From the sequence record MK509462: DNA of 64,000 bases, one strand, 5' to 3'. Source of the stretch: Shigella phage MK-13. Under the pieces are notes generated by a model that was not told the DNA's origin, ran no database searches, and saw only the letters and a list, made by a program, of their open reading frames with translations. The first letter of the stretch is position 1; every line of letters begins with the position of its first letter. Below, in pieces: positions 4,775-44,297 of the stretch. The position numbers and the translations under genes were made by a program.

Positions 4775-6337
4775 TTACTTGTACAGGCCAGTGACGTCAA
4801 TAGACTTGTGCTGGCGGTTGTACTCAGCAGTGTAGTCATCCAACACCAGGTATTCGCAGCAGCGGATTTTACTGGAGCCATAATCGTTGGTGATAGACAC
4901 GATATCTTTCGGGTTCAGCTTACAGCGAACAACGCGCTGGCCAACAGAACCGAAACACTGTTTCAGGTAGGCCAGGGAGCACACATGCAGACCGTATGAA
5001 CACAGGTCGGAGTTGTTGTCGTTCACGAATGAGCGAGCCATGCGCACGATAGTGCCTGGTGCGTTGCTGATCGTGTTGCTGTGTTTGTCCATGTAGTTGC
5101 CGCGCACCGATTTGTAGAGGATGATGTCACCATCGTCGTCAATTTCGATGTCGGAGTACGCCATGAACTCATAGATGCGCCCAGACTGAACCAGAGCAGC
5201 CGACGGGTTCTGGAACATTTTGTCCATAAACTTCGCCATGCGGTCCAGGTTGTGGAAGTCACCCTTCAGCATCAGCGCCAGTACACGCTTGGCGATGGAT
5301 GTGCCTGTGATGTCATGGCCAGACCAGCGGACACGGTTGTCAGACACGTCTACCAGACCTTCAGCGTACTTCGCGATGGCATCACGAGGGCGCATCAGCG
5401 AGTATGCCAGCTTCACGTCTTTGTCTTTGATCGCCTGTACGATGCGGTCATATGCTGGATGTGAAGTGGTGATCGTTTCCGGCTTGCCGTCAATTGCGAT
5501 AACAACGCTGTCAGGCAGAATCAGGATCTGGTGTTCGTTCAGGAACACGTCCAGGTCTTTCGCGCCGAAGTCCTGCTTGGTCTTCTTGTCATCAGCCACT
5601 TCTTCAACTTCTTTGATAGCGACAGCGAATTCCACAGAAGACAGAGCCAGGCGCAGGGTGCGGCCGAGGATGGCATCGAAGTAACCAACACGACGACGGG
5701 CATCCAAGGATCCACGAATAGGATAGGTTTCCCCGTCAACCACAACGCTGATTTCAACGTTGCTCGGAACTTTATCCGCACCTTCTGACAGCGCCACAGA
5801 AATTTCTGCCATCTTACCGATAGCTTCAACGCCGAAAGCGCGGCTGTTTCCTTCAACAGGAGTCAGTTCGGATTTTTCAAAGAAAGCCCCTTTGAAATTG
5901 CCGTCGTTAGTGAGACACAGATACTTGTTGTGGTTCGGTAGATATGCCCCAACATACCATTCTGAGTCATCTTTGTCTTTGGCCGTGCCGCCCGGTTGCA
6001 CCTCGAACACTTCCTGCTCTTCCTGCTTGATAGGAGAGATCACAGTTACCTTGTTTTCCTCCTCAGTAATCCGGACCAGCAGAGCGCGAGCAATGGTCTT
6101 GGCGCTTACAGCAAAGAACTCAGCCAGGGCGCGGTTGCTTTCGCCAGCCTTGCTCTTCACCTGAATCTGCTGAATCTCTTCAGTGGTCAGAGATTTCAGC
6201 GATAACGGGTTAACACCGAGTTCCGTGTCTGCAACACGTTGTACAGTCGAGCGGGGTATGCCCAACAGAGTGGCAATTGCGCTCTGGCTCATGCCTGCCT
6301 TCAAATGCTTGAGGATCTTTTCGTCAATCTTGTTCAT
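4775..6337 (-). CDS. rIIB: rIIB-like protein
   Basis: ATG at 6337 (ORF-track start 6424 is TTG); N-terminal HTH-like segment MSQSAIATLLGIPRSTVQRV; C-terminus ...GLHVCSLAYLKQCFG...RVVRCKLNPKDIVSI..DY...KIRCCEY resembles rIIB as recalled; lies directly downstream of rIIA as in T4. Confidence 0.65.
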   Translation of the reverse strand: MNKIDEKILKHLKAGMSQSAIATLLGIPRSTVQRVADTELGVNPLSLKSLTTEEIQQIQVKSKAGESNRALAEFFAVSAKTIARALLVRITEEENKVTVISPIKQEEQEVFEVQPGGTAKDKDDSEWYVGAYLPNHNKYLCLTNDGNFKGAFFEKSELTPVEGNSRAFGVEAIGKMAEISVALSEGADKVPSNVEISVVVDGETYPIRGSLDARRRVGYFDAILGRTLRLALSSVEFAVAIKEVEEVADDKKTKQDFGAKDLDVFLNEHQILILPDSVVIAIDGKPETITTSHPAYDRIVQAIKDKDVKLAYSLMRPRDAIAKYAEGLVDVSDNRVRWSGHDITGTSIAKRVLALMLKGDFHNLDRMAKFMDKMFQNPSAALVQSGRIYEFMAYSDIEIDDDGDIILYKSVRGNYMDKHSNTISNAPGTIVRMARSFVNDNNSDLCSYGLHVCSLAYLKQCFGSVGQRVVRCKLNPKDIVSITNDYGSSKIRCCEYLVLDDYTAEYNRQHKSIDVTGLYK

Positions 6338-27121: not shown

Positions 27122-27376
27122 CTAGGAAACGATAACAGAGGAAGCAGAAGACGCGCTCTTAACCCACCCAACAGTCGGCGGGGTGAGCACAACGATATTA
27201 CCTTGATAGAGAGTATGAGCCGGAGAGGAAGCACTCGGCGTGGTTGGACTATCACACAAATACACAGAACCTTGAGTCACTTGTATTGTTTTCAATGATG
27301 TGCCATCTGAGACTTGCGTCCATGTACTTGCATCCAGAGTAAACTTGGCTGTTGCCATGATACACCTCCTGTACAA
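27122..27376 (-). CDS. hypothetical protein (about 78-84 aa)
   Basis: Minus-strand ORF. Confidence 0.4.
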   Translation of the reverse strand: MYRRCIMATAKFTLDASTWTQVSDGTSLKTIQVTQGSVYLCDSPTTPSASSPAHTLYQGNIVVLTPPTVGWVKSASSASSVIVS

Positions 27377-27786
27377 GTTCAGATCTATTTATACCGGACA
27401 AAAGAAAGCCGGATATCCTTATCCGGCTATACCACATCGATGGGATGGGTGGAAAGACTACACACTTTGCACTGGTACTGCCCTATGGGAGAGCGCGTCA
27501 GGAGTCGAACCTGAAGTCGTCGGCGTAGAGAAAGCTATTTGCATTTCACTATCCTCGCCGCGATTTTCTTAACTTCCTAAACACCCGATTACGAGAGAGT
27601 CGGCATGCACACCTTCTAACTCTTCAGGAAGTCACGCCCACAATTTGGTGCCCGTTAGAGGGGTTGAACCTCAGCACTCTGGTGATCAACCCAGAGAGTC
27701 GCGCCTCATCCGTTTGTTAGTCAGATTTGGGTCTTGCAAAACCTTAACCGACCGTCTACAAACAGACTGCTTGACCGAGCGTAATT

Positions 27787-27870
27787 TGGAGCGGGAGAGC
27801 AGGATTCGAACCTGTCCAGTGATCGTCGCCGATGATCAGTCGGCTACTGTCCAACCCCTATGGCTCCCGC
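27787..27870 (-). tRNA. tRNA-like gene, near-canonical (tentative anticodon GAT)
   Basis: Perfect 7-bp acceptor GCGGGAG/CTCCCGC plus T and CCA, T-loop TTCGAAT, 5-bp anticodon stem GCCGA/TCGGC; one extra nucleotide at the T-stem/acceptor junction and a D-stem mismatch. Confidence 0.45.
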
Positions 27871-28093
27871 GAAATAAGGACGGGCTTCACACCCGATTGA
27901 GCATTTGATCTGCCGTAGCCCAACTCCCCGCGCTTCTCAGCGCCGATTGGTTAACTGGCGACCAGTGCCTTCTGGTTCGATCTCCTGGAACTTTACAGGC
28001 TTTGCGCCCGACCATTTCTGGAAGTTGGGGCATCGTTTCCGATGTGGAGTCACCCCATTTTATACACAGCGTGGCTGCAACGCTTACTGTGTT

Positions 28094-28177
28094 TGGTGTG
28101 AGTGGATGGATTCGAACCACCGCGCTGTTACGGGGAGATTTACAGTCTCCTGCATTCGACCGCTCTGCCACACTCAC
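28094..28177 (-). tRNA. tRNA-Tyr (anticodon GTA), type II with long variable arm
   Basis: Acceptor GTGAGTG/CACTCAC + A + CCA; anticodon stem GGAGA/TCTCC with loop CTGTAAA; T-arm GGTGG-TTCGAAT-CCATC; 84 nt. Confidence 0.75.
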
Positions 28178-28434
28178 ATTTGGTCTACCGCTGCGTGCTG
28201 GGCCACGCTCGAGGACATCGGCCATCCTTCCTCAGCTAATCCACGCAGCGGCAGATTTGTTTCAGAGTGTCCGGTGTAGCAACCCGTGAGGTGCGCACTA
28301 CTGTAGCCTCTACACTCTGAATTTGGTGGGCGTTACTATCGTCGTCTTCGGATTCCGTTCGGCTATTGGACAGAGGCTTGGAGCTTGTCGGTCGCGTACT
28401 TCGTGCCTATTCACTTTCGTTCACACCCATTGTC

Positions 28435-28510
28435 TGGCGACGATGACAGGACTTGAACCTGTGACATATGGATTAACAGTCCACCGTTCTACCGACTGAA
28501 CTACATCGTC
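28435..28510 (-). tRNA. tRNA-Asn (anticodon GTT)
   Basis: Full cloverleaf: acceptor GACGATG/CATCGTC, D-arm GTTC-AGTCGGTA-GAAC, anticodon stem GTGGA/TCCAT with loop CTGTTAA, T-arm ACAGG-TTCAAGT-CCTGT, discriminator G, CCA; 76 nt. Confidence 0.9.
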
Positions 28511-28511
28511 T

Positions 28512-28736
28512 TTATCCGTGCTTGTTCGCTTCAATCGCCCTTAATTGGGCATCAGCGTCAGCTTTGGTGTCATGTGTACCAAGAACCTTCGTCTTGGTGT
28601 GGTCAAGGACAACCCACTTGTCACCTCGCTTTTCAACAAACTCGACAATCTCTTTGTTGTCGGTAGCGAGGCCATCCCACTCAGCAATAAAATCACCGAA
28701 CGTTTTCATCATACTCACCAATTGTTTATTGAACAA
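28512..28736 (-). CDS. hypothetical protein (74 aa)
   Basis: Clean minus-strand ORF ending 2 nt before tRNA-Asn. Confidence 0.5.
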   Translation of the reverse strand: MFNKQLVSMMKTFGDFIAEWDGLATDNKEIVEFVEKRGDKWVVLDHTKTKVLGTHDTKADADAQLRAIEANKHG

Positions 28737-28938
28737 CTGGTTTATTTAGGTGCTCCCAAGGCGGTATTTGAATCCCGCGATCCCATCACACCTGCCGTAG
28801 ACCGGAGCTTGCTGGCAGTCCAACAATGTTTGGCGGGGTTTGAGGATTTTCACCTCACCTGCTGGGTTTGGCCGCCCAGCCGTTCTCTATGAGGATTCGC
28901 TGTCCGGACAACTATCCCTTAAACTATCGCCCCTCAAT

Positions 28939-29018
28939 TTGGTTGGAGGAGAAGGATTCGAACCTTCAACGGCTGCCGCCATCCCCTCAGGGAATGTCTA
29001 CCCCTTCCATCATCCTCC
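28939..29018 (-). tRNA. tRNA gene, isotype unresolved (tentative anticodon TGA)
   Basis: Perfect acceptor TGGAGGA/TCCTCCA + A + CCA and T-arm GAAGG-TTCGAAT-CCTTC; D-arm and anticodon-arm register could not be resolved by hand. Confidence 0.55.
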
Positions 29019-30538
29019 AAATTATTGTGTGACCAACCAAGGACTGTCAACCCTTTATCCCGTTTGTGCATGATCAGTTCATGCAGGCCTGTTTGTGCGC
29101 CTCACAGCATGCGCTTCTGTTGGTCATTGGCTTGCACCGTAGCCTCGCAACAGGCGTTTATTTTTCCAGGGCTTTCCACTTGCAAGTCTTAACCATACAG
29201 GGATACGGGCTTGCAAGATCGGGTTGGTCACAACTCTGATGGCTCTCGCCTTTCCGCTCATTTACCTGTCATCCACAACCGATATACATTATGGAATCTT
29301 GAGAGCCATCAGAGTTGCAGCCATGCTACAACCCGCACCTGGGAGAGGACAAGGTGATCGACCCCAGATACTTGCCTGCTTTCGCCAGGCCAAACGGTTT
29401 AGCGTCGGGTGCCTCCCGATGCCATTATCATGGCGAATAATGGCGTTGACTTATCCTCAGGTGGTTCTTGCCACTCAACCCTTGCGCTTAGCAGGATTCA
29501 CTAAACAACCCGCACTTCAGTGTCTTCGTCACACTTCAGCACTTGTCCTCTAACGTTCAGACCAAACGAGGCTGGCCGATAGCAAACTTGTTCTCTGGTA
29601 TTTTGTGACCCGCCAGAACGGTATGGGTTGATAGCCCGAACTCAGTTTGTATCGTAGAGTGATCACACTTGTCAGGATGATCACTATTTTGCGAACTCGA
29701 GAATACTGCACCTGTCTCGGGTTTCCCCTTAGTACGGTCACTCATTGTTCGAAGCAGTCAGGGAGCTACCCTTGATGACCGCGCTTATCTTGAGCTGTTC
29801 CTGGTGCCCACCAGTGTCCGGAATGTATAGGCATCGCAGCTTTACAAGGCAATGGTCTATTTCACCCATCGCTCTCCCAAGTTCGCAAAGTAGAGTTCTC
29901 TGAACTTCAATGACCCCTCATCTTGTACTATCGCCGCCGGGAACGTTCACCATGTGAATCAACCCTTGGGTTAAGTTCAACGTCCAGAGGACTCTACTTT
30001 GCGTTGTGGGGGCTGACCCCCACACGGCTACTTCTTTAACAGGGATTGCCAGCCCTGGGGATTCCACTGTTTAAGGCTTCATCCCATAACGCCTTAGGCG
30101 TGTTCTCAAATTATTGAGCTTGCTTAACTGCAAACTGATGCGCTGTGAGACACATCTTTGAGGGCACTCAGTGTGCAACAGGCTCCGATATTTCATAGGG
30201 CATTACTGCCTCGGATTTGAGTTGCCTTTCTCCTGAAACTCCATGCAGTCTCGCGTCTGACGCGGAATGCCCTCAAAGATGTGGAGCCGCTTTAGGGAGT
30301 CGAACCCAAGTGATTGGCCAGCGCTGACCTCACACCCCACCTGATATGTTCACCGGAACTTGCCTACTCAGGAGCTTATCCCCTTTTGACAATCAGGTAT
30401 AGCGGCATTGTAAATCTGTTTGGGCGGAGGCCTGTAACCAGCAGGCATCTCCTAGCGAACTTCTGAACACCAGGCTCGGGTGCGCCTGTCGCTGTGGTGA
30501 GTTCGACTTAACTCCTGAGCGGTTATTCCCAGTCGTCG

Positions 30539-30628
30539 ACACCCCCCAAACAGATTTTAGTCGGCGGGAGCTTATTAATCACACCCCCCAAACAGATTTT
30601 AGTCGGCGGGAGCTTATTAATCACACCC
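30539..30628. repeat. 42-bp tandem direct repeat, 2 copies plus a partial third
   Basis: acaccccccaaacagattttagtcggcgggagcttattaatc at 30539-30580 and 30581-30622, then acaccc; GGCGGGAG/CTCCCGCC inverted repeat at 30605-30612/30628-30635. Confidence 0.85.
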
Positions 30629-31357
30629 TCCCGCCTATTGTAGTGCGCCGAATTTTGTTATGAGGAGTCGGAAGACCTCACTGACTTATAGGCTATTACG
30701 CCGCCATCAGAACTACATCATCGTTTGCATTTATTTTTGTGGTCTGTTTCTTAAAACCCGCAAAGTCACGCACAACGAAAACGAAAACCTGTTTGAGCAC
30801 AAGACGCCATGTCCTGGGTTCACATCGAAGTGTTTGTCTAATGCCCAAACAGCTTTTCGTTCAATGGGTTAACTATACTCTGCAACCCGTTATTGACAAA
30901 ACTTTAAATCTGCCGGAACTTACGCATCCGGCCTCGCCTGTTGGTGCTCCTTCGAATCCGGGAAGATCAGCAGGAACTATGAATCAAGTTAATTCAACCA
31001 ACAGGAACCTTTGTGTTGCCCTTTGACGCAACATTATGAACCCTCTGTGAAGATCCATAATGTTGTCGGCGTGATGGAACCTGGCAGATCCGTCCTCCCC
31101 TATATGTTGGTGTCGACTTGCCAACGGGGTGCTCTCAAGCATCTGAGCTAATCACGCTACAACAGGGAGTTTCGTTCTCCGACGGTCAGTGCGTCCACTA
31201 ACACCATGCAAGGTGGATGTCACGCCTCTATTCACGCATGCCCCTGAGACTGGGATTAGTGAGGTCGGCTTTAGATGCCTAACTCAATGCGCTGTTCGCC
31301 TCACGTTTAATACTTTACCACAGCCCAGCTAATTTGAAAAGTCCTCTCCTCTTTGAG

Positions 31358-31504
31358 TTACACTGCCCACAGCAGTGCGGACGAACCTTCACTCAAAACC
31401 GGATGCACCGAAGTGGGCGACTGTTTACCGGACTGATCGGGTAGACCCAGGAGAGTAAAGGTAATCCCGATCAGGAGGATGAGGAGTAACATCATGTAAA
31501 ACAT
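31358..31504 (-). CDS. small hydrophobic protein (48 aa; not in the ORF track)
   Basis: Minus-strand ATG preceded by a strong SD GAAGGGAGGGAA; translation MFYMMLLLILLIGITFTLLGLPDQSGKQ... Confidence 0.4.
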   Translation of the reverse strand: MFYMMLLLILLIGITFTLLGLPDQSGKQSPTSVHPVLSEGSSALLWAV

Positions 31505-31561
31505 AGTGTTCCCTCCCTTCCATGCAACTAACTTTACTGCAATTCTTTATTGAATAAAGCG

Positions 31562-32131
31562 TTATTTTACCACTTTTAACTTCACATCACGCTCGAGCAG
31601 ATACACATATTCACGGGCGGCTGCGAGCGACATATAATGGGTGGATGGGGTGCTGTGTTTGTTCAGCGTCTCTTTTAATTCAACTCGCTCAGCCCACCCA
31701 TTGATGGAGGTGCCGTAGAAGCCGATGATAGCAGCGAAATAAATGCGTTGAGTTTCCGGCTCCAGGATGTAGTTCACGGTGAAGCAAACTTCAGAGCGAA
31801 TGCCAGAAGGTTTGATACCAATACGAAAATATGGCATCTCATTGCTAACACACAAATGGCGAAAACGATCACGACGGGCTTGTGTTGACTCCGTAAGTTC
31901 TTTACGCAGATGTATATCGTCGATGTTAAAAGAGAATGTGTTGTTGCTCTTTAGATCTGATTTAGCCAGGTCGATAGCAGAAGGAAGGACACGGCGGAAA
32001 TTGACTTCTTTCTTTGTCAAGCGTTTTGTCTCAGAAGTGATCCACACGAAATCGATATCTTGTACTTTCTTTCCTTCATATTTTTCCAACAAGGGAATGA
32101 TGTGTTTTAATACGGCAGTGTTGATGTGCAT
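31562..32131 (-). CDS. hypothetical protein (189 aa)
   Basis: Minus-strand ORF; palindrome CTTTATTGAATAAAG immediately downstream. Confidence 0.6.
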   Translation of the reverse strand: MHINTAVLKHIIPLLEKYEGKKVQDIDFVWITSETKRLTKKEVNFRRVLPSAIDLAKSDLKSNNTFSFNIDDIHLRKELTESTQARRDRFRHLCVSNEMPYFRIGIKPSGIRSEVCFTVNYILEPETQRIYFAAIIGFYGTSINGWAERVELKETLNKHSTPSTHYMSLAAAREYVYLLERDVKLKVVK

Positions 32132-41516: not shown

Positions 41517-44297
41517 ATGTCTAGAAACGTCGAGAGCATCTTTGGAGCGGTTGTAACAGCCCCGCACCAGATTCCATACACTTACACCGCAACGGGTGGA
41601 GAGACGTTTATCTCCCTCCCGTTCTACCCTGTTACAGGCTTCATCACCATCAATGGTGGGGTTCAGGTTCCTGTCGACAACTATGAAATTGATGGTAACA
41701 CTGTGAACCTCGGTCGAGCGCTAGAGGCTGATGATGTAGTGTACTGTCTGTTCGACAAGATCCTGTCCCCAGAAGATTATGAAAACGGGATCCGAATCTA
41801 CAAGTTCCAGGCCGTTGGCAACGAGACCTCATTCACCCCAGACTTCACGACGTATGGTGTGCAATCCCTGTATATCGATGGGAAGTTCCAGGTTCCTGGG
41901 GTTGACTACAATTACAACAGCGCAACTGGTGTGGTGTCATTCCTGAATGGATCTCCGACTGCTGGTGTTTGGGTTGTGGCTGAGATGTCTGTGAAGCAAA
42001 ACTATCTGGCTCTGTCTTCGGAGGGTGGTGCCAGTTTGGTAGGCACGACTTCTGGCAGCACTGTGCAGGAAGAGTTGAACGATGTTGCTGGGCAGCTAGC
42101 CAATTTAGAAGATGATCTTTCTACATTGAAAATTGCAGTGGCCAGTGTTTCCTTTACTCAATTTGGGGCAGTTGGTGACGGCGTGGCTAACGACACGCAC
42201 GCCGTAAAACTGGCGTTCGATTATGCTCTTGCTAATAACGTTGCAGTCGAGCAGCATAGCGGTGTTTTCTTGCTGGATGGCACTGAATACATTGATATCA
42301 GAAACCTGCAAACCGACCTCACCGGATGCGTCCTTAAGCCATCCGCATCATGGACTGGTCAGATTGTGATTTCTCAGACTGGCGCGCCTGTCACTTACGG
42401 TTCTAGTTCTGATGTCGTGACAAAACTTAATACTAACAGTCCAGCCAGCCGCGCCGTTGGAAGTACGATAATGAGCGGGATCGCAACTGATAGCACTTTG
42501 GATGGATGCTACGTCAAAATATCGACTTCTCAGCCAATGTTCGTATTCAGGGACGCTACTTACACAAGGAAAGACCTGAACAGAGTTTATAACCGAGGCA
42601 ACATAGAGAACCCGTTACGCTATGGCCTAGGAACGAATGTTACAGAAGTTATTGCGCTGAAAATTCGCAAAGACGTGCAGACTGTTAAAGGGCTTACTAT
42701 TGATGAAAGCCTGTCGAAAAACTATCGCATTGTGTACATCAACAACGCATCACGCGTTAAGCTTGTCAACACGTCTTTCATCAATGCCCCGATAACGCAG
42801 GATTTCAGTGATACCAGAATTGATATTGCAGGCTCATATGACGTGGAAATTGACGGCCTGTTCACACCGTCTGTGGTCGATTCGTTCAACGGCACTGGTG
42901 ACATCTACTCGTATTCTCTGGGTATAAGCGAGAGCATGAATGTCAGAGTGAAGCATATGACTGCTAACGGTGAAGGATGGGGCGCGACCGGTAGCAACAA
43001 CAGCGCAAACATTACTTTCGAAGAATGCGACTTGAGCAGGATTGACTTTCATATGCCTTTCCAGGGATATTTGCGTGTCAATAAATGCAATGTTGGACGA
43101 TACGGTGTAGTTGTAACTGGCATTGGTGACCTAATCATTGATGATGTCATCTTTAATGGTTCAACTGACCAGCTGGGTTCAATTATCGCCACTCGTCCTG
43201 ACTGCGGCGGGTTCTTCGATGGTGACCTGTATATGTCAAATGTGACTATCGCTGGTCGCCGTTCCGGTCAGATTTCGGCACTAATCCAGGGACCTGCTGA
43301 TGCTGGGCAGGGACCAGCATCAGGATCGCCCATCAACAGCACTCTTTTCAATAAAGTTGTTATTCGCGACCTAAAACTGAAAGACGGATTCTTTGAGCAG
43401 ACTTTTGCCACGCTACTGTATTCCCAGCGTGATTCACAACTACTGTTCCCAAAAGTGGTCGATATTGACGGGCTAAGTTTTGGGGCGCTGCCAAAATCAT
43501 CTGGGGTTGGCCTGAATATCGACTTCTCGCGATTTAAAGCGCTGTTCTCTGATATGACAAACTCAGAGCATCCAGTAACAGGAAGAAAAACGACCGATAT
43601 TATTTTACGTAATATTCAAACACCATATCTGTCGGTAACAGCGGCATCAGCGCGTCATAACCCCTCTATTGTCGCAAGTAACGTGCGTCATGTGATAAGT
43701 GGCGAAGTAGATACGCTGCTGGAGATTAACCAGCGTGGCAGATATTTGTTAGATTCATGCTCACTTGAGCAGTTGAAGCTTTTTTATGGTTCGAACCCCA
43801 ATGGCCTGGTAAGTCTCACAATGCGTGGCGGCAGACTTCAGCAGCCTGTTGCAGCAACCATGCCTATTTCTGGTGAAACCACGCACAGCGTCACCCTAGA
43901 TGGAACGGATATTGTGTGCCAGTTCAACGGGCAAGACTCAACATACCCGATCACCAAAGCAATCATTGCCAGGGCGCTTGTTAAAGACTGTAGATATTGG
44001 GATGTTTCTGGCGCAAGACTAAACAATTTGAGTTTCGTTAAGCCTGAAAGCACTAGCACCACTATAACTGTGACTATGAAGGTTGGTCAAAAATTAGCAG
44101 TGTCTACCGGATACACAGCAGGCAATACTTACACAAGAAGCAACTTTACCGCGTTGTGGGAGTCAGGTGCCAAGCAAGTAGCAAGCATTGGCGCGGCAGG
44201 CAACGTGATTGTCACATATACGGTATCAGGTGATTCGGTTTCACAGATAGTAATGACAAGTCCAGCAAGTAATGAGATCCGCGACGTGTCAATTTAA
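41517..44297 (+). CDS. tailspike protein, about 926 aa
   Basis: Start ambiguous (41502 or 41517); beta-helix-like repeats; N-terminal anchor-like region. Confidence 0.7.
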   Translation: MSRNVESIFGAVVTAPHQIPYTYTATGGETFISLPFYPVTGFITINGGVQVPVDNYEIDGNTVNLGRALEADDVVYCLFDKILSPEDYENGIRIYKFQAVGNETSFTPDFTTYGVQSLYIDGKFQVPGVDYNYNSATGVVSFLNGSPTAGVWVVAEMSVKQNYLALSSEGGASLVGTTSGSTVQEELNDVAGQLANLEDDLSTLKIAVASVSFTQFGAVGDGVANDTHAVKLAFDYALANNVAVEQHSGVFLLDGTEYIDIRNLQTDLTGCVLKPSASWTGQIVISQTGAPVTYGSSSDVVTKLNTNSPASRAVGSTIMSGIATDSTLDGCYVKISTSQPMFVFRDATYTRKDLNRVYNRGNIENPLRYGLGTNVTEVIALKIRKDVQTVKGLTIDESLSKNYRIVYINNASRVKLVNTSFINAPITQDFSDTRIDIAGSYDVEIDGLFTPSVVDSFNGTGDIYSYSLGISESMNVRVKHMTANGEGWGATGSNNSANITFEECDLSRIDFHMPFQGYLRVNKCNVGRYGVVVTGIGDLIIDDVIFNGSTDQLGSIIATRPDCGGFFDGDLYMSNVTIAGRRSGQISALIQGPADAGQGPASGSPINSTLFNKVVIRDLKLKDGFFEQTFATLLYSQRDSQLLFPKVVDIDGLSFGALPKSSGVGLNIDFSRFKALFSDMTNSEHPVTGRKTTDIILRNIQTPYLSVTAASARHNPSIVASNVRHVISGEVDTLLEINQRGRYLLDSCSLEQLKLFYGSNPNGLVSLTMRGGRLQQPVAATMPISGETTHSVTLDGTDIVCQFNGQDSTYPITKAIIARALVKDCRYWDVSGARLNNLSFVKPESTSTTITVTMKVGQKLAVSTGYTAGNTYTRSNFTALWESGAKQVASIGAAGNVIVTYTVSGDSVSQIVMTSPASNEIRDVSI

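Follow-up and report, generated by a model that had tools for sequence, protein, structure and literature searches.

Three tRNA-like fragments are probably the 3' ends of longer RNAs

A stretch of 64,000 nucleotides from Shigella phage MK-13 (sequence record MK509462; here denoted the window) carries an island of transfer RNA (tRNA) genes on its minus strand, and within this island lie three short loci that end like tRNAs. Our analysis indicates that these three fragments are probably the 3' ends of three distinct and conserved genes for tRNA-derived non-coding RNAs (ncRNAs), denoted F1, F2 and F3, whose transcripts would be excised in the manner of tRNAs and may act as tRNA mimics, with two near-canonical tRNA loci of the same island forming part of the set. 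Each fragment has a canonical T-loop, an acceptor-type strand and a CCA-like end on the minus strand, as the original prediction, made from the letters of the window, had described. Fragment 27486-27514 is the 3' end of F1, 27646-27672 that of F2 and 30282-30307 that of F3. The original prediction had found no 5' acceptor strand for any of them, because its search stopped at 100 nt; the partners sit 110-140 nt upstream, where a scan picks them up and where they are backed by consensus folding and by compensatory substitutions in relatives. Among the readings that it had offered, unusual tRNAs or tRNA-like 3' ends of longer RNAs came essentially right, each fragment appearing as the 3' end of a tRNA-derived RNA of 125-154 nt.

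The T-loop motif GGTTCRANYCC is strongly enriched in the window, with eight matches against 0.57 expected, a count attained in none of 100 shuffles. Seven of the eight matches are on the minus strand at 27.5-30.3 kb. The only match outside the RNA island is GGTTCGAACCC on the plus strand (43788-43798).

Structures of F1, F3 and F2

F1 is a unit of 154 nt on the minus strand (27486..27639), defined by minimum free energy (MFE) folding, RNAalifold consensus folding, pair counts, a covariance model (CM) and BLAST. Its 3' end reads ...UCAGGUUCGACUCCUGA-CGCGCUC-U-CCCA and pairs with GGGCGUG (27633-27639) to form a 7-bp acceptor stem with compensatory changes, F1 being the only one of the three units with all seven pairs. 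In relatives the stem reads GAGUGUG/CGCACUC (Kuttervirus) and GGGUGCG/CGCACUC (Taipeivirus). A branched arm of 61 nt occupies the position of the D-arm and an arm of 47 nt that of the anticodon arm, followed by a canonical T-arm (UCAGG-UUCGACU-CCUGA) and the tail U-CCCA. The T-stem covaries among relatives (tcagG..Cctga, tcggG..Cccga, ctggG..Cccgg). The RNAalifold consensus contains 41 pairs, 12 of them compensatory and spread across the acceptor, the T-stem and the arm at the anticodon position. Of all cells in the alignment 96.7% are paired, versus 41-47% in slid registers, and the observed covariation was attained by none of 500 shuffles. The distal closure is also given by the single-sequence MFE fold. 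The loops of the enlarged arms, AAGGUGUGCAUGCC and GUGAAAUGCA..UUUC, are conserved and contain the complementary sequences UGCAU and AUGCA.

F3, a 125-nt tRNA-like RNA on the minus strand (30282..30406), was defined by RNAalifold, pair counts, CM and BLAST. It ends in ...GGGUUCGACUCCC-UAA-AGCGGC-U-CCA, and its acceptor stem comprises six pairs, GCCGCU (30401-30406) with AGCGGC, which relatives carry as GCCGUU/AACGGC. The unit has an arm of 62 nt, a second arm of about 30 nt with an apical GGUCA-GCGC-UGGCC hairpin, the T-arm GGG-UUCGACU-CCC and the tail U-CCA. The consensus includes 37 pairs, seven of them compensatory, among these a change from C:G to U:A in the acceptor; 98.3% of cells are paired, versus 33-53% in slid registers, and again no shuffle out of 500 attained the observed covariation. 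Here too the single-sequence MFE fold gives the distal closure, and the enlarged arm carries a conserved loop, AAAGGGGAUAAGCUCCUGAGUA. The structures of F1 and F3 are thus well supported.

The structure of F2, a 135-nt tRNA-like RNA (27646..27780, minus strand) defined by consensus folding and BLAST, is probable. Its 3' end is ...GAGGUUCAACCCCUC-U-AACGGGC-A-CCA, and GCUCG (27776-27780) pairs with CGGGC. An arm of about 75 nt stands at the D-arm position; at the anticodon position is a stem of 6 bp whose 8-nt loop, GUUGAUCA, is invariant, and the unit closes with the T-arm GAGG-UUCAACC-CCUC and the tail A-CCA. In the single-sequence MFE fold the 3' acceptor strand has a local partner; only the consensus folds give the distal closure. 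When two copies from Klebsiella phages join the first five sequences, the fold is fully compatible and gains five compensatory pairs; from these pairs, positions 6-8 pair internally, therefore the acceptor stem is 5 bp long. In Klebsiella phage RCIP0012, F2 lies 6 nt upstream of tRNA-Tyr.

F1-F3 appear to derive from tRNAs and are conserved in Ackermannviridae

All three units share a four-way junction in the order of a tRNA: acceptor, a long arm of 61-75 nt at the D-arm position, a second arm at the anticodon-arm position, a short linker, a canonical T-arm, the discriminator and CCA (CCCA in F1). With scores of 134-181 bits the CMs of F1 and F3 retrieve their own families, and their next-best matches are genuine tRNAs aligned across the entire model, namely SUSP2 tRNA-Met (29 bits, E ~2e-7), Taipeivirus tRNA-Gln, T4 tRNA-Leu and tRNA-Thr, and P7 tRNA-Thr; the F3 model matches tRNA-Thr of both P7 and T4. 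In the printed CM alignment the D-arm and the anticodon arm of the tRNAs fall on the two enlarged arms. Since genuine tRNAs align end to end, the units are tRNA-derived.

None of the three units has a 5-bp anticodon stem with a 7-nt loop (U33, purine 37) or a 3-4 bp D-stem with a GG loop, the D-arm being replaced in all of them. F1 and F3 cannot decode, because they have no 7-nt anticodon loop. ARAGORN made no call at F1-F3 in its standard, relaxed, intron or tmRNA (transfer-messenger RNA) modes, and none of them reaches the gathering score of the Rfam tRNA model RF00005 (29 bits).

From its sequence, the window originates from an Ackermannviridae phage whose closest relative is Shigella phage Ag3 (Agtrevirus). 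The 4.2 kb of 27400-31600 are 96% identical to Ag3 across 82% of their length; to many Kuttervirus genomes the identity is about 84%. BLAST detected full-length copies of F1 in 234 phage records, of F3 in 197 and of F2 in 113. All records that bear F1, F2 or F3 are Ackermannviridae genomes of about 150-160 kb, from phages of Salmonella, Escherichia, Shigella, Klebsiella, Enterobacter, Serratia and Dickeya. The copies are 70-97% identical and nearly all unannotated, and no variation is seen in their T-loops, their CCA ends or several of their internal loops. The comparison with the tRNA clusters of related phages, which the original prediction had proposed as a check, thus found all three fragments conserved, with covarying T-stems.

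Proposed processing and role of F1-F3

F2 and then F1 are the final two units ahead of an intrinsic-terminator-like hairpin with a U-tract, a consensus match on the minus strand directly 3' of F1 (27399..27428) that by its sequence is likely to be the end of the tRNA/ncRNA transcription unit. A consensus scan located promoter-like sites at 30899-30872 and 29050-29021 on the minus strand. A/U-rich spacers of the CCA-AAUU type follow every tRNA and unit, and the same spacer type is found in the T4 tRNA cluster, between tRNA-Arg, rnaD and rnaC.

What is known of tRNA processing, together with the precedent of T4, suggests that F1-F3 would be co-transcribed with the tRNAs from sigma-70-type promoters. 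The stack of acceptor and T-arm with a 3' NCCA is the element recognized by RNase P; because F1-F3 present this element, RNase P and 3' trimming would be expected to release them, as they release tRNAs and the T4 species 1 and 2 RNAs. Once excised, they may accumulate as stable RNAs with tRNA-like ends. Judging from anatomy, the enlarged arms with their conserved loops are the likely functional surfaces, and the most likely role, which we put forward as speculation, would be that of tRNA mimics that engage tRNA-binding proteins of the host or the phage. As decoys or regulators, F1-F3 might target SmpB-type factors, nucleases of tRNA-directed defence, or enzymes that add CCA or modify tRNAs.

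Several observations weigh against this interpretation. The covariation was drawn from a modest set of 8-9 distinct related sequences, and a simple scan showed that acceptor-type matches at six of seven positions are frequent by chance within 200 nt; we did not count bare complementarity as evidence, and the case for the distal acceptors depends on the covariation because such matches are common. The acceptor stem of F3 is supported by one compensatory event plus invariant pairs, that of F2 has just five pairs, and F1 terminates in UCCCA rather than NCCA. For F2, covariation was not significant in a first sample of five sequences, which held too little variation. Chimeric F2 copies in Dickeya phage have lost the acceptor pairing, and from their sequences at least some copies of F2 are dispensable or decaying. 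The promoters and the terminator of the island are consensus matches, and the units are known from their DNA sequence. A role as decoy or regulator is a speculative reading of anatomy. Finally, the CMs of F1 and F3 give no match to the T4 rnaC/rnaD region, and homology to these T4 RNAs was rejected.

Decay and recombination in the island

The fragments might also be decayed tRNA genes, a possibility raised in the original prediction, or scars of duplication, deletion or T-loop-mediated recombination, in either case lacking a function of their own. Rearrangement of the region is evident. In Dickeya phage, F2 (~5848-5990 of the compared sequence) is chimeric: after its 5' 121 nt the sequence switches, at the T-loop GGUUCAACUCC that both units have in common, to the 3' end (..CACUCACCCAGCCC) of another small tRNA-like unit, which Ag3 carries intact (sense ~5000-5090 of the compared sequence). 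The position of this fusion at a shared T-loop points to recombination between T-loops, which, as far as the sequences tell, reshuffles the elements of the island and has left some copies broken. In addition, the window lacks a 68-nt element of Ag3 and of the relatives L002 and L008 and keeps its orphan GGCGAGG strand, Ag3 lacks F3, and the tRNA content varies from genus to genus among the relatives. However, in F1 and F3 every major helix is kept by compensatory substitutions in Agtrevirus, Kuttervirus and Taipeivirus, the T-loops, CCA ends and several internal loops do not vary, and full-length copies persist in 113-234 genomes; pseudogenes would not be expected to remain 96-98% paired at 20-30% divergence. 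Decay is for these reasons an unlikely explanation of F1-F3, and we retain the reading that they are conserved tRNA-derived RNAs.

A tag-coding module upstream of F3

A separate tmRNA-like, tag-coding module lies just upstream of F3 on the minus strand (30560..30899), recognized by sub-threshold Rfam matches and by alignments. It contains a conserved promoter-like sequence, TTGTCA-16-TATAGT (30872-30899, a consensus match), followed by a long covarying hairpin (30789-30852), a tag frame running from GCA to UAA (30696-30728), a second covarying hairpin (30660-30681), and one or more hairpins with the conserved loop GGUGUGAUUAAUAAG, which are duplicated (30605-30635); the conserved loop of the module is also written GGUGUGAUUAAUAA. 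The tag frame consists of ten codons and a stop, GCA AAC GAU GAU GUA GUU CUG AUG GCG GCG UAA, encoding ANDDVVLMAA*, and stands 3' of AAAAAUAAAU, a resume context like that of E. coli ssrA. A perfect tandem duplication at 30539-30628 (period 42, 2.1 copies, 100% identity) doubles the GGUGUGAUUAAUAAG-loop hairpin; relatives carry one copy of this hairpin, and the duplication is therefore recent.

Tags of several types, all of ten codons, were found (ANDDVVLMAA, ANDNTFLAVA, ANDNVFLAVA, ANDDLMMAAA, ANDEQFLAVA and others). In the relatives compared, every nucleotide difference within a tag type is synonymous and the frame has no start codon, a pattern of variation that, as read from sequence, is the behaviour of a tmRNA tag frame. 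The module is located at ~1440-1690, ~1480-1720, ~1480-1700 and ~2480-2700 of the compared relatives L003, L004, L005 and L006, respectively. Elsewhere, the Felix O1-like phage SUSP2 has it within its tRNA cluster, P1/P7 in the leader of the ban-tRNA operon, and lambdoid prophages in the interval from Q to the holin gene; siphovirus 6947 carries it as well. Of 5426 E. coli genomes 562 contain the module, for the most part on plasmids, and it is therefore not the host ssrA.

The neighbourhood of tag frame and F3 suggests that F3 could be the 3' tRNA-like domain of a long or rearranged phage tmRNA that ARAGORN missed, with its tag frame about 290 nt upstream. The Rfam models tmRNA_permuted (30.5 bits) and alpha_tmRNA (20.3 bits) match 30644-30846 below their gathering scores of 47-50, a further match reaches 10.5 bits, and tmRNA positions 349-361 fall on the T-loop of F3. 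The 3' end of F3 (GGGUUCGACUCCC..CGGCUCCAC) resembles the canonical end GGGUUCGAUUCCCGCCAGCUCCACCA of complete permuted tmRNAs, the tag frame varies only synonymously and lacks a start codon, and tag and F3 are adjacent in Kuttervirus, in Taipeivirus and in the window. Against this, ARAGORN in tmRNA mode, relaxed thresholds included, detected no tmRNA gene in the island. There is no usable GG[AG]GCCG 5' strand in the window or in relatives as a partner for the alternative CGGCUCC-A register; the sole near match, GAGGCCG, located 600-1050 nt further upstream, would leave an A-C mismatch and is tied up in a hairpin of its own. The G3:U70 pair is absent, F3 closes locally through an acceptor stem with a compensatory change, and the distance between tag and F3 ranges from ~290 to 770 nt. 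The module occurs without F3 in Ag3, P7, SUSP2, phage 6947 and lambdoid prophages, the last four having other tRNAs or none downstream of it. In the window and relatives we found no tRNA-like domain with G3:U70 and no covarying partner that would make F3 its 3' half. A tmRNA that includes F3 is accordingly quite improbable; we conclude that F3 does not belong to a tmRNA and that the tag module stands as an element in its own right.

Three candidate tmRNA 5' strands were rejected. GGGCAUU, the 5' strand of the hairpin at 30789-30852, could face AAUGCC(G) at ~30406-30412 or AAUGCCC at ~30200, but these do not covary (L002 has GAGUCCU) and the strand is engaged in the local covarying hairpin. GCUGAU..GGAUUCGA (30939-30990), taken as a 5' domain, has no complementary CAGCAGG-type strand and forms a local hairpin followed by AGCACC-A-ACA. 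A downstream GGAGCC, taken as the 5' strand of F3 or of a tmRNA, would need a pseudoknot with a 16-bp inverted repeat and shows no covariation. Identity of the tag module with PasA/PasC or another named small RNA (sRNA) was likewise rejected, its sequence being absent from the Pas preprint and supplement.

Complete relatives of the tag region do exist in other viral contigs. About 45 of 75 tag-bearing viral metagenome contigs, which have the resume motif in common with the module, carry complete permuted (two-piece) tmRNA genes by ARAGORN, none of them of the enterobacterial-phage type, with tags such as ANDERFLMAA, ANDNAFLMAA and ANDNFAPSGYALAA; those with short tags are the closest complete relatives of the tag region in the window. 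In a survey of 2014, mycobacteriophages and Bacillus phage G were the only phages listed with ssrA (PMC4131195). Literature searches that covered the sequence of the module, its tag peptides, phage elements resembling tmRNA, and transcriptomes or ncRNAs of Ackermannviridae retrieved nothing relevant; the searchable literature is incomplete, and this result is no proof of novelty. The tag module is the most novel thing seen in the window and, if really unreported, would extend tmRNA-like elements to coliphages, P1 and lambdoid prophages included.

On a tentative and rather doubtful note, we propose a previously unrecognized toolkit that mimics the translation apparatus, carried by Ackermannviridae and partly by P1-like, Felix O1-like and lambdoid phages. 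It would comprise CCA-ended, anticodon-less, oversized tRNA mimics (F1-F3, together with the element X1 and the 68-nt mini-tRNA of Ag3, both described below) and the promoter-bearing tag module, which codes for a peptide of the degradation type (ANDDVVLMAA, ANDNTFLAVA and others) and has no tRNA-like domain of its own. The tag might be translated with the help of a partner in trans, either a phage tRNA-like RNA or the host tmRNA/SmpB, or else the module and the mimics, resembling tRNA-like domains, might hijack or block host trans-translation and tRNA-directed defences.

Comparison of F1-F3 with known RNAs

F1-F3 resemble canonical tRNAs (RF00005) in their acceptor stem, canonical T-loop, discriminator with encoded CCA, four-way junction with the same order of arms, and location in a tRNA array, whereas they differ in their length of 125-154 nt, in the arm of 61-75 nt that replaces the D-arm, and in an anticodon-position arm of 30-47 nt that has no 7-nt loop (F1, F3) or an 8-nt loop (F2). 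That they are tRNA genes interrupted by an intron or insert and spliced or trimmed to ordinary decoding tRNAs is very unlikely: F2 does keep an anticodon-arm-like hairpin, T-arm, acceptor and ACCA around one large insertion at the D-arm position, and the CMs do align genuine tRNAs end to end, but F1 and F3 are enlarged at both the D-arm and the anticodon-arm positions and have no 7-nt anticodon loop, the F2 loop is an invariant 8 nt, Rfam gives no group I or II intron signal at E<=10, known bacterial tRNA introns lie in the anticodon loop, and the inserted arms show conservation and covariation, as expected of functional RNA but not of a spacer.

The closest known analogues of the conserved tRNA-derived units are rnaC and rnaD of phage T4. 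These RNAs, species 1 and 2, were recognized decades ago as stable, processed products of the T4 tRNA cluster. Their genes (rnaC 139 nt, rnaD 119 nt) occupy the distal end of the cluster, in the orientation of the tRNA genes and with CCA-AAUU-type spacers, just as F1-F3 (125-154 nt) lie within their cluster. The layout of rnaC is like that of F1-F3, with an acceptor-like stem, a long arm, a second hairpin arm, the T-arm CCGGG-UUCGAAU-CCCGG and an acceptor-like strand, although its acceptor pairing is weaker, and rnaD has no T-arm. T4 belongs to the Straboviridae, whereas the carriers of F1-F3 are Ackermannviridae. Because the F1 and F3 models miss the rnaC/rnaD region, the analogy is one of architecture and not of homology, and F1-F3 are not of the same family. 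Stable accumulation and processing are known for the T4 RNAs from the literature, older work included, and are predicted for F1-F3. The roles of the T4 RNAs were described as unknown in 2010 and in 2025 (PMC3014915, PMC12685909), and the later paper reported a convergent adaptive single-nucleotide polymorphism in rnaD upon adaptation to a semi-permissive host (PMC12685909).

Other parallels are more distant. With tmRNAs, including the two-piece permuted forms and the mycobacteriophage DS6A molecule that consists of a tRNA-like domain (TLD) only, the units share an acceptor and T-arm without an anticodon, the 3' end of F3 and a nearby tag frame. The differences are that F3 has neither G3:U70 nor A73 (its acceptor begins with G1-C, C2-G and C3-G, and position 73 is U) nor a D-loop element of the GGAUUCGAC type, and that the tag is not enclosed by acceptor strands. 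TLD-only molecules have been reported to inhibit tmRNA, possibly by titrating SmpB (PMC4131195), and this inhibition offers a possible functional parallel for F1-F3. The Y RNA-like YrlA is a structured ncRNA with a tRNA-like module of T-arm and D-arm; F1-F3 end in a free N-CCA, unlike the closed Ro-binding stem. Rfam gives no match to YrlA (RF02553) in 27200-31700 at E<=10.

F1-F3 constitute an independent set of RNAs comparable to those of T4, well conserved in another phage family that is in intensive use, with Vi01, CBA120 and Ag3-type phages as candidates for therapy and biocontrol. Their clear tRNA ancestry and a natural variation sufficient to define structures turn the class into a comparative problem beyond T4. 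In more than 100 deposited genomes the loci are blank or mis-called as tiny hypothetical proteins.

Non-canonical tRNA loci of the same set

ARAGORN called four tRNAs in the island (Ile-GAT, Tyr, Asn and Ser-TGA), all on the minus strand, and the Rfam tRNA model passes Tyr and Asn only. The latter two are canonical: tRNA-Tyr(GTA) at 28094..28177 scores 57.3 bits and tRNA-Asn(GTT) at 28435..28510 scores 76.6 bits. The Ile-like and Ser-like loci are further non-canonical members of the tRNA-derived set, and the irregular D or T junctions noted there by the original prediction are genuine. The same prediction would have been countered had tools folded these two loci as standard tRNAs and left the three fragments without a tRNA-like fold; ARAGORN does fold both loci, Rfam rejects both, and a tRNA-like fold does exist at the fragments. 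The ARAGORN check itself, in relaxed, intron and tmRNA modes, was divided in the same way, calling the two loci as tRNAs and returning nothing at the fragments.

The Ile-like locus (27787..27870), called tRNA-Ile(GAT) and below the Rfam tRNA threshold, has a perfect GCGGGAG/CUCCCGC acceptor, U73-CCA, a 6+7 stack of T-arm and acceptor with a mismatch, and the loop CUGAUCA (C37). It is irregular in its additional junction pair, in a T-stem of 4 bp that includes a mismatch, in C37 and in a variable region that is long and unpaired. The acceptor with U73 resembles that of E. coli tRNA-Gly. The best match in the Rfam clan is tRNA-Sec (20.9 bits), and the locus is conserved in Ag3 and in the relatives L020 and L022, where ARAGORN makes no call. 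Its loop CUGAUCA and the F2 loop GUUGAUCA share the self-complementary hexamer UGAUCA, a GATC site in DNA. The Ser-like locus (28940..29019), called tRNA-Ser(UGA), is a non-canonical class-II form, also below the Rfam tRNA threshold, with C33 in place of U33 and a weak 3-bp D-stem; it too matches tRNA-Sec best in the clan (24.5 bits), and an identical copy is annotated in Ag3. Analyses of codon usage should leave the present ARAGORN calls of tRNA-Ile and tRNA-Ser out of the count of ordinary decoding tRNAs.

X1 and a 68-nt mini element

A further conserved, tRNA-shaped element, denoted X1, was detected at 31061..31164 on the minus strand by a scan, by BLAST to 11 relatives and by alifold. Its acceptor GCGUGAU/AUCACGC is invariant and extended by UGUUGU/ACAACA. 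X1 has a canonical D-arm (UAGCUCAG..GAGCA), a long arm at the anticodon position and no free CCA; the stem of its T-arm covaries, and the loop is non-canonical, not a T-loop. The extended acceptor helix and the lack of a free CCA bring X1 nearest to the design of YrlA, that is, a tRNA-like module inside a longer RNA.

The 68-nt mini tRNA-like element is found in Ag3, in some Kuttervirus and in Taipeivirus, immediately upstream of the promoter of the tag module. It reads GGCGAGG...GUGUGG-UUCGAUU-CCACAC-CCUCGCC-A-ACA and has a 3-bp 'anticodon' hairpin. The element is deleted in the window (30911-30942) and in GEC_vB_N6, where the orphan GGCGAGG strand remains. Every genome examined has the mini element, F3 or both.

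Annotation and other features of the island

The island (~27440-31560) is almost devoid of long open reading frames (ORFs), and all its recognizable features are on the minus strand. In deposited relatives the remainder of the island is unannotated or covered by tiny hypothetical coding sequences (CDSs), which over these RNA loci are probably mis-annotations. F1 overlaps orf00223 of Ag3 (FJ373894), and GEC_vB_N6 (MW006480, gp189-gp207) has about 20 tiny CDSs over the island. Beyond the two canonical tRNAs, Rfam at the gathering score and at E<=10 returned only sub-threshold hints for the island; the matches to MIR781, a snoRNA, WLE3 and plastid families are long-hairpin or chance matches.

Between F3 and tRNA-Ser(UGA), about 1.26 kb on the minus strand (29020-30280) are conserved and poor in ORFs, and probably hold further structured RNAs. 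A long, near-perfect hairpin at 29884-30003 is the origin of the spurious MIR781 matches on both strands. A 16-bp perfect inverted repeat (CACAUCUUUGAGGGCA / UGCCCUCAAAGAUGUG, minus strand, 30268-30283 and 30151-30166) begins inside the CCA of F3 and encloses about 100 nt; its 5' arm is kept in Kuttervirus and Taipeivirus, and the repeat may serve as a stem for processing or form a further structured RNA. STnc100, a family of prophage sRNAs related to PasD, is matched below threshold at 29397-29506 of the minus strand (33.4 bits, gathering score 47), and P7 matches the family with 43 bits (2760-2875 of the compared sequence). P7 has the same set of parts as the window, namely tag module, tRNAs, tRNA-Ser(UGA) and the STnc100-like element.

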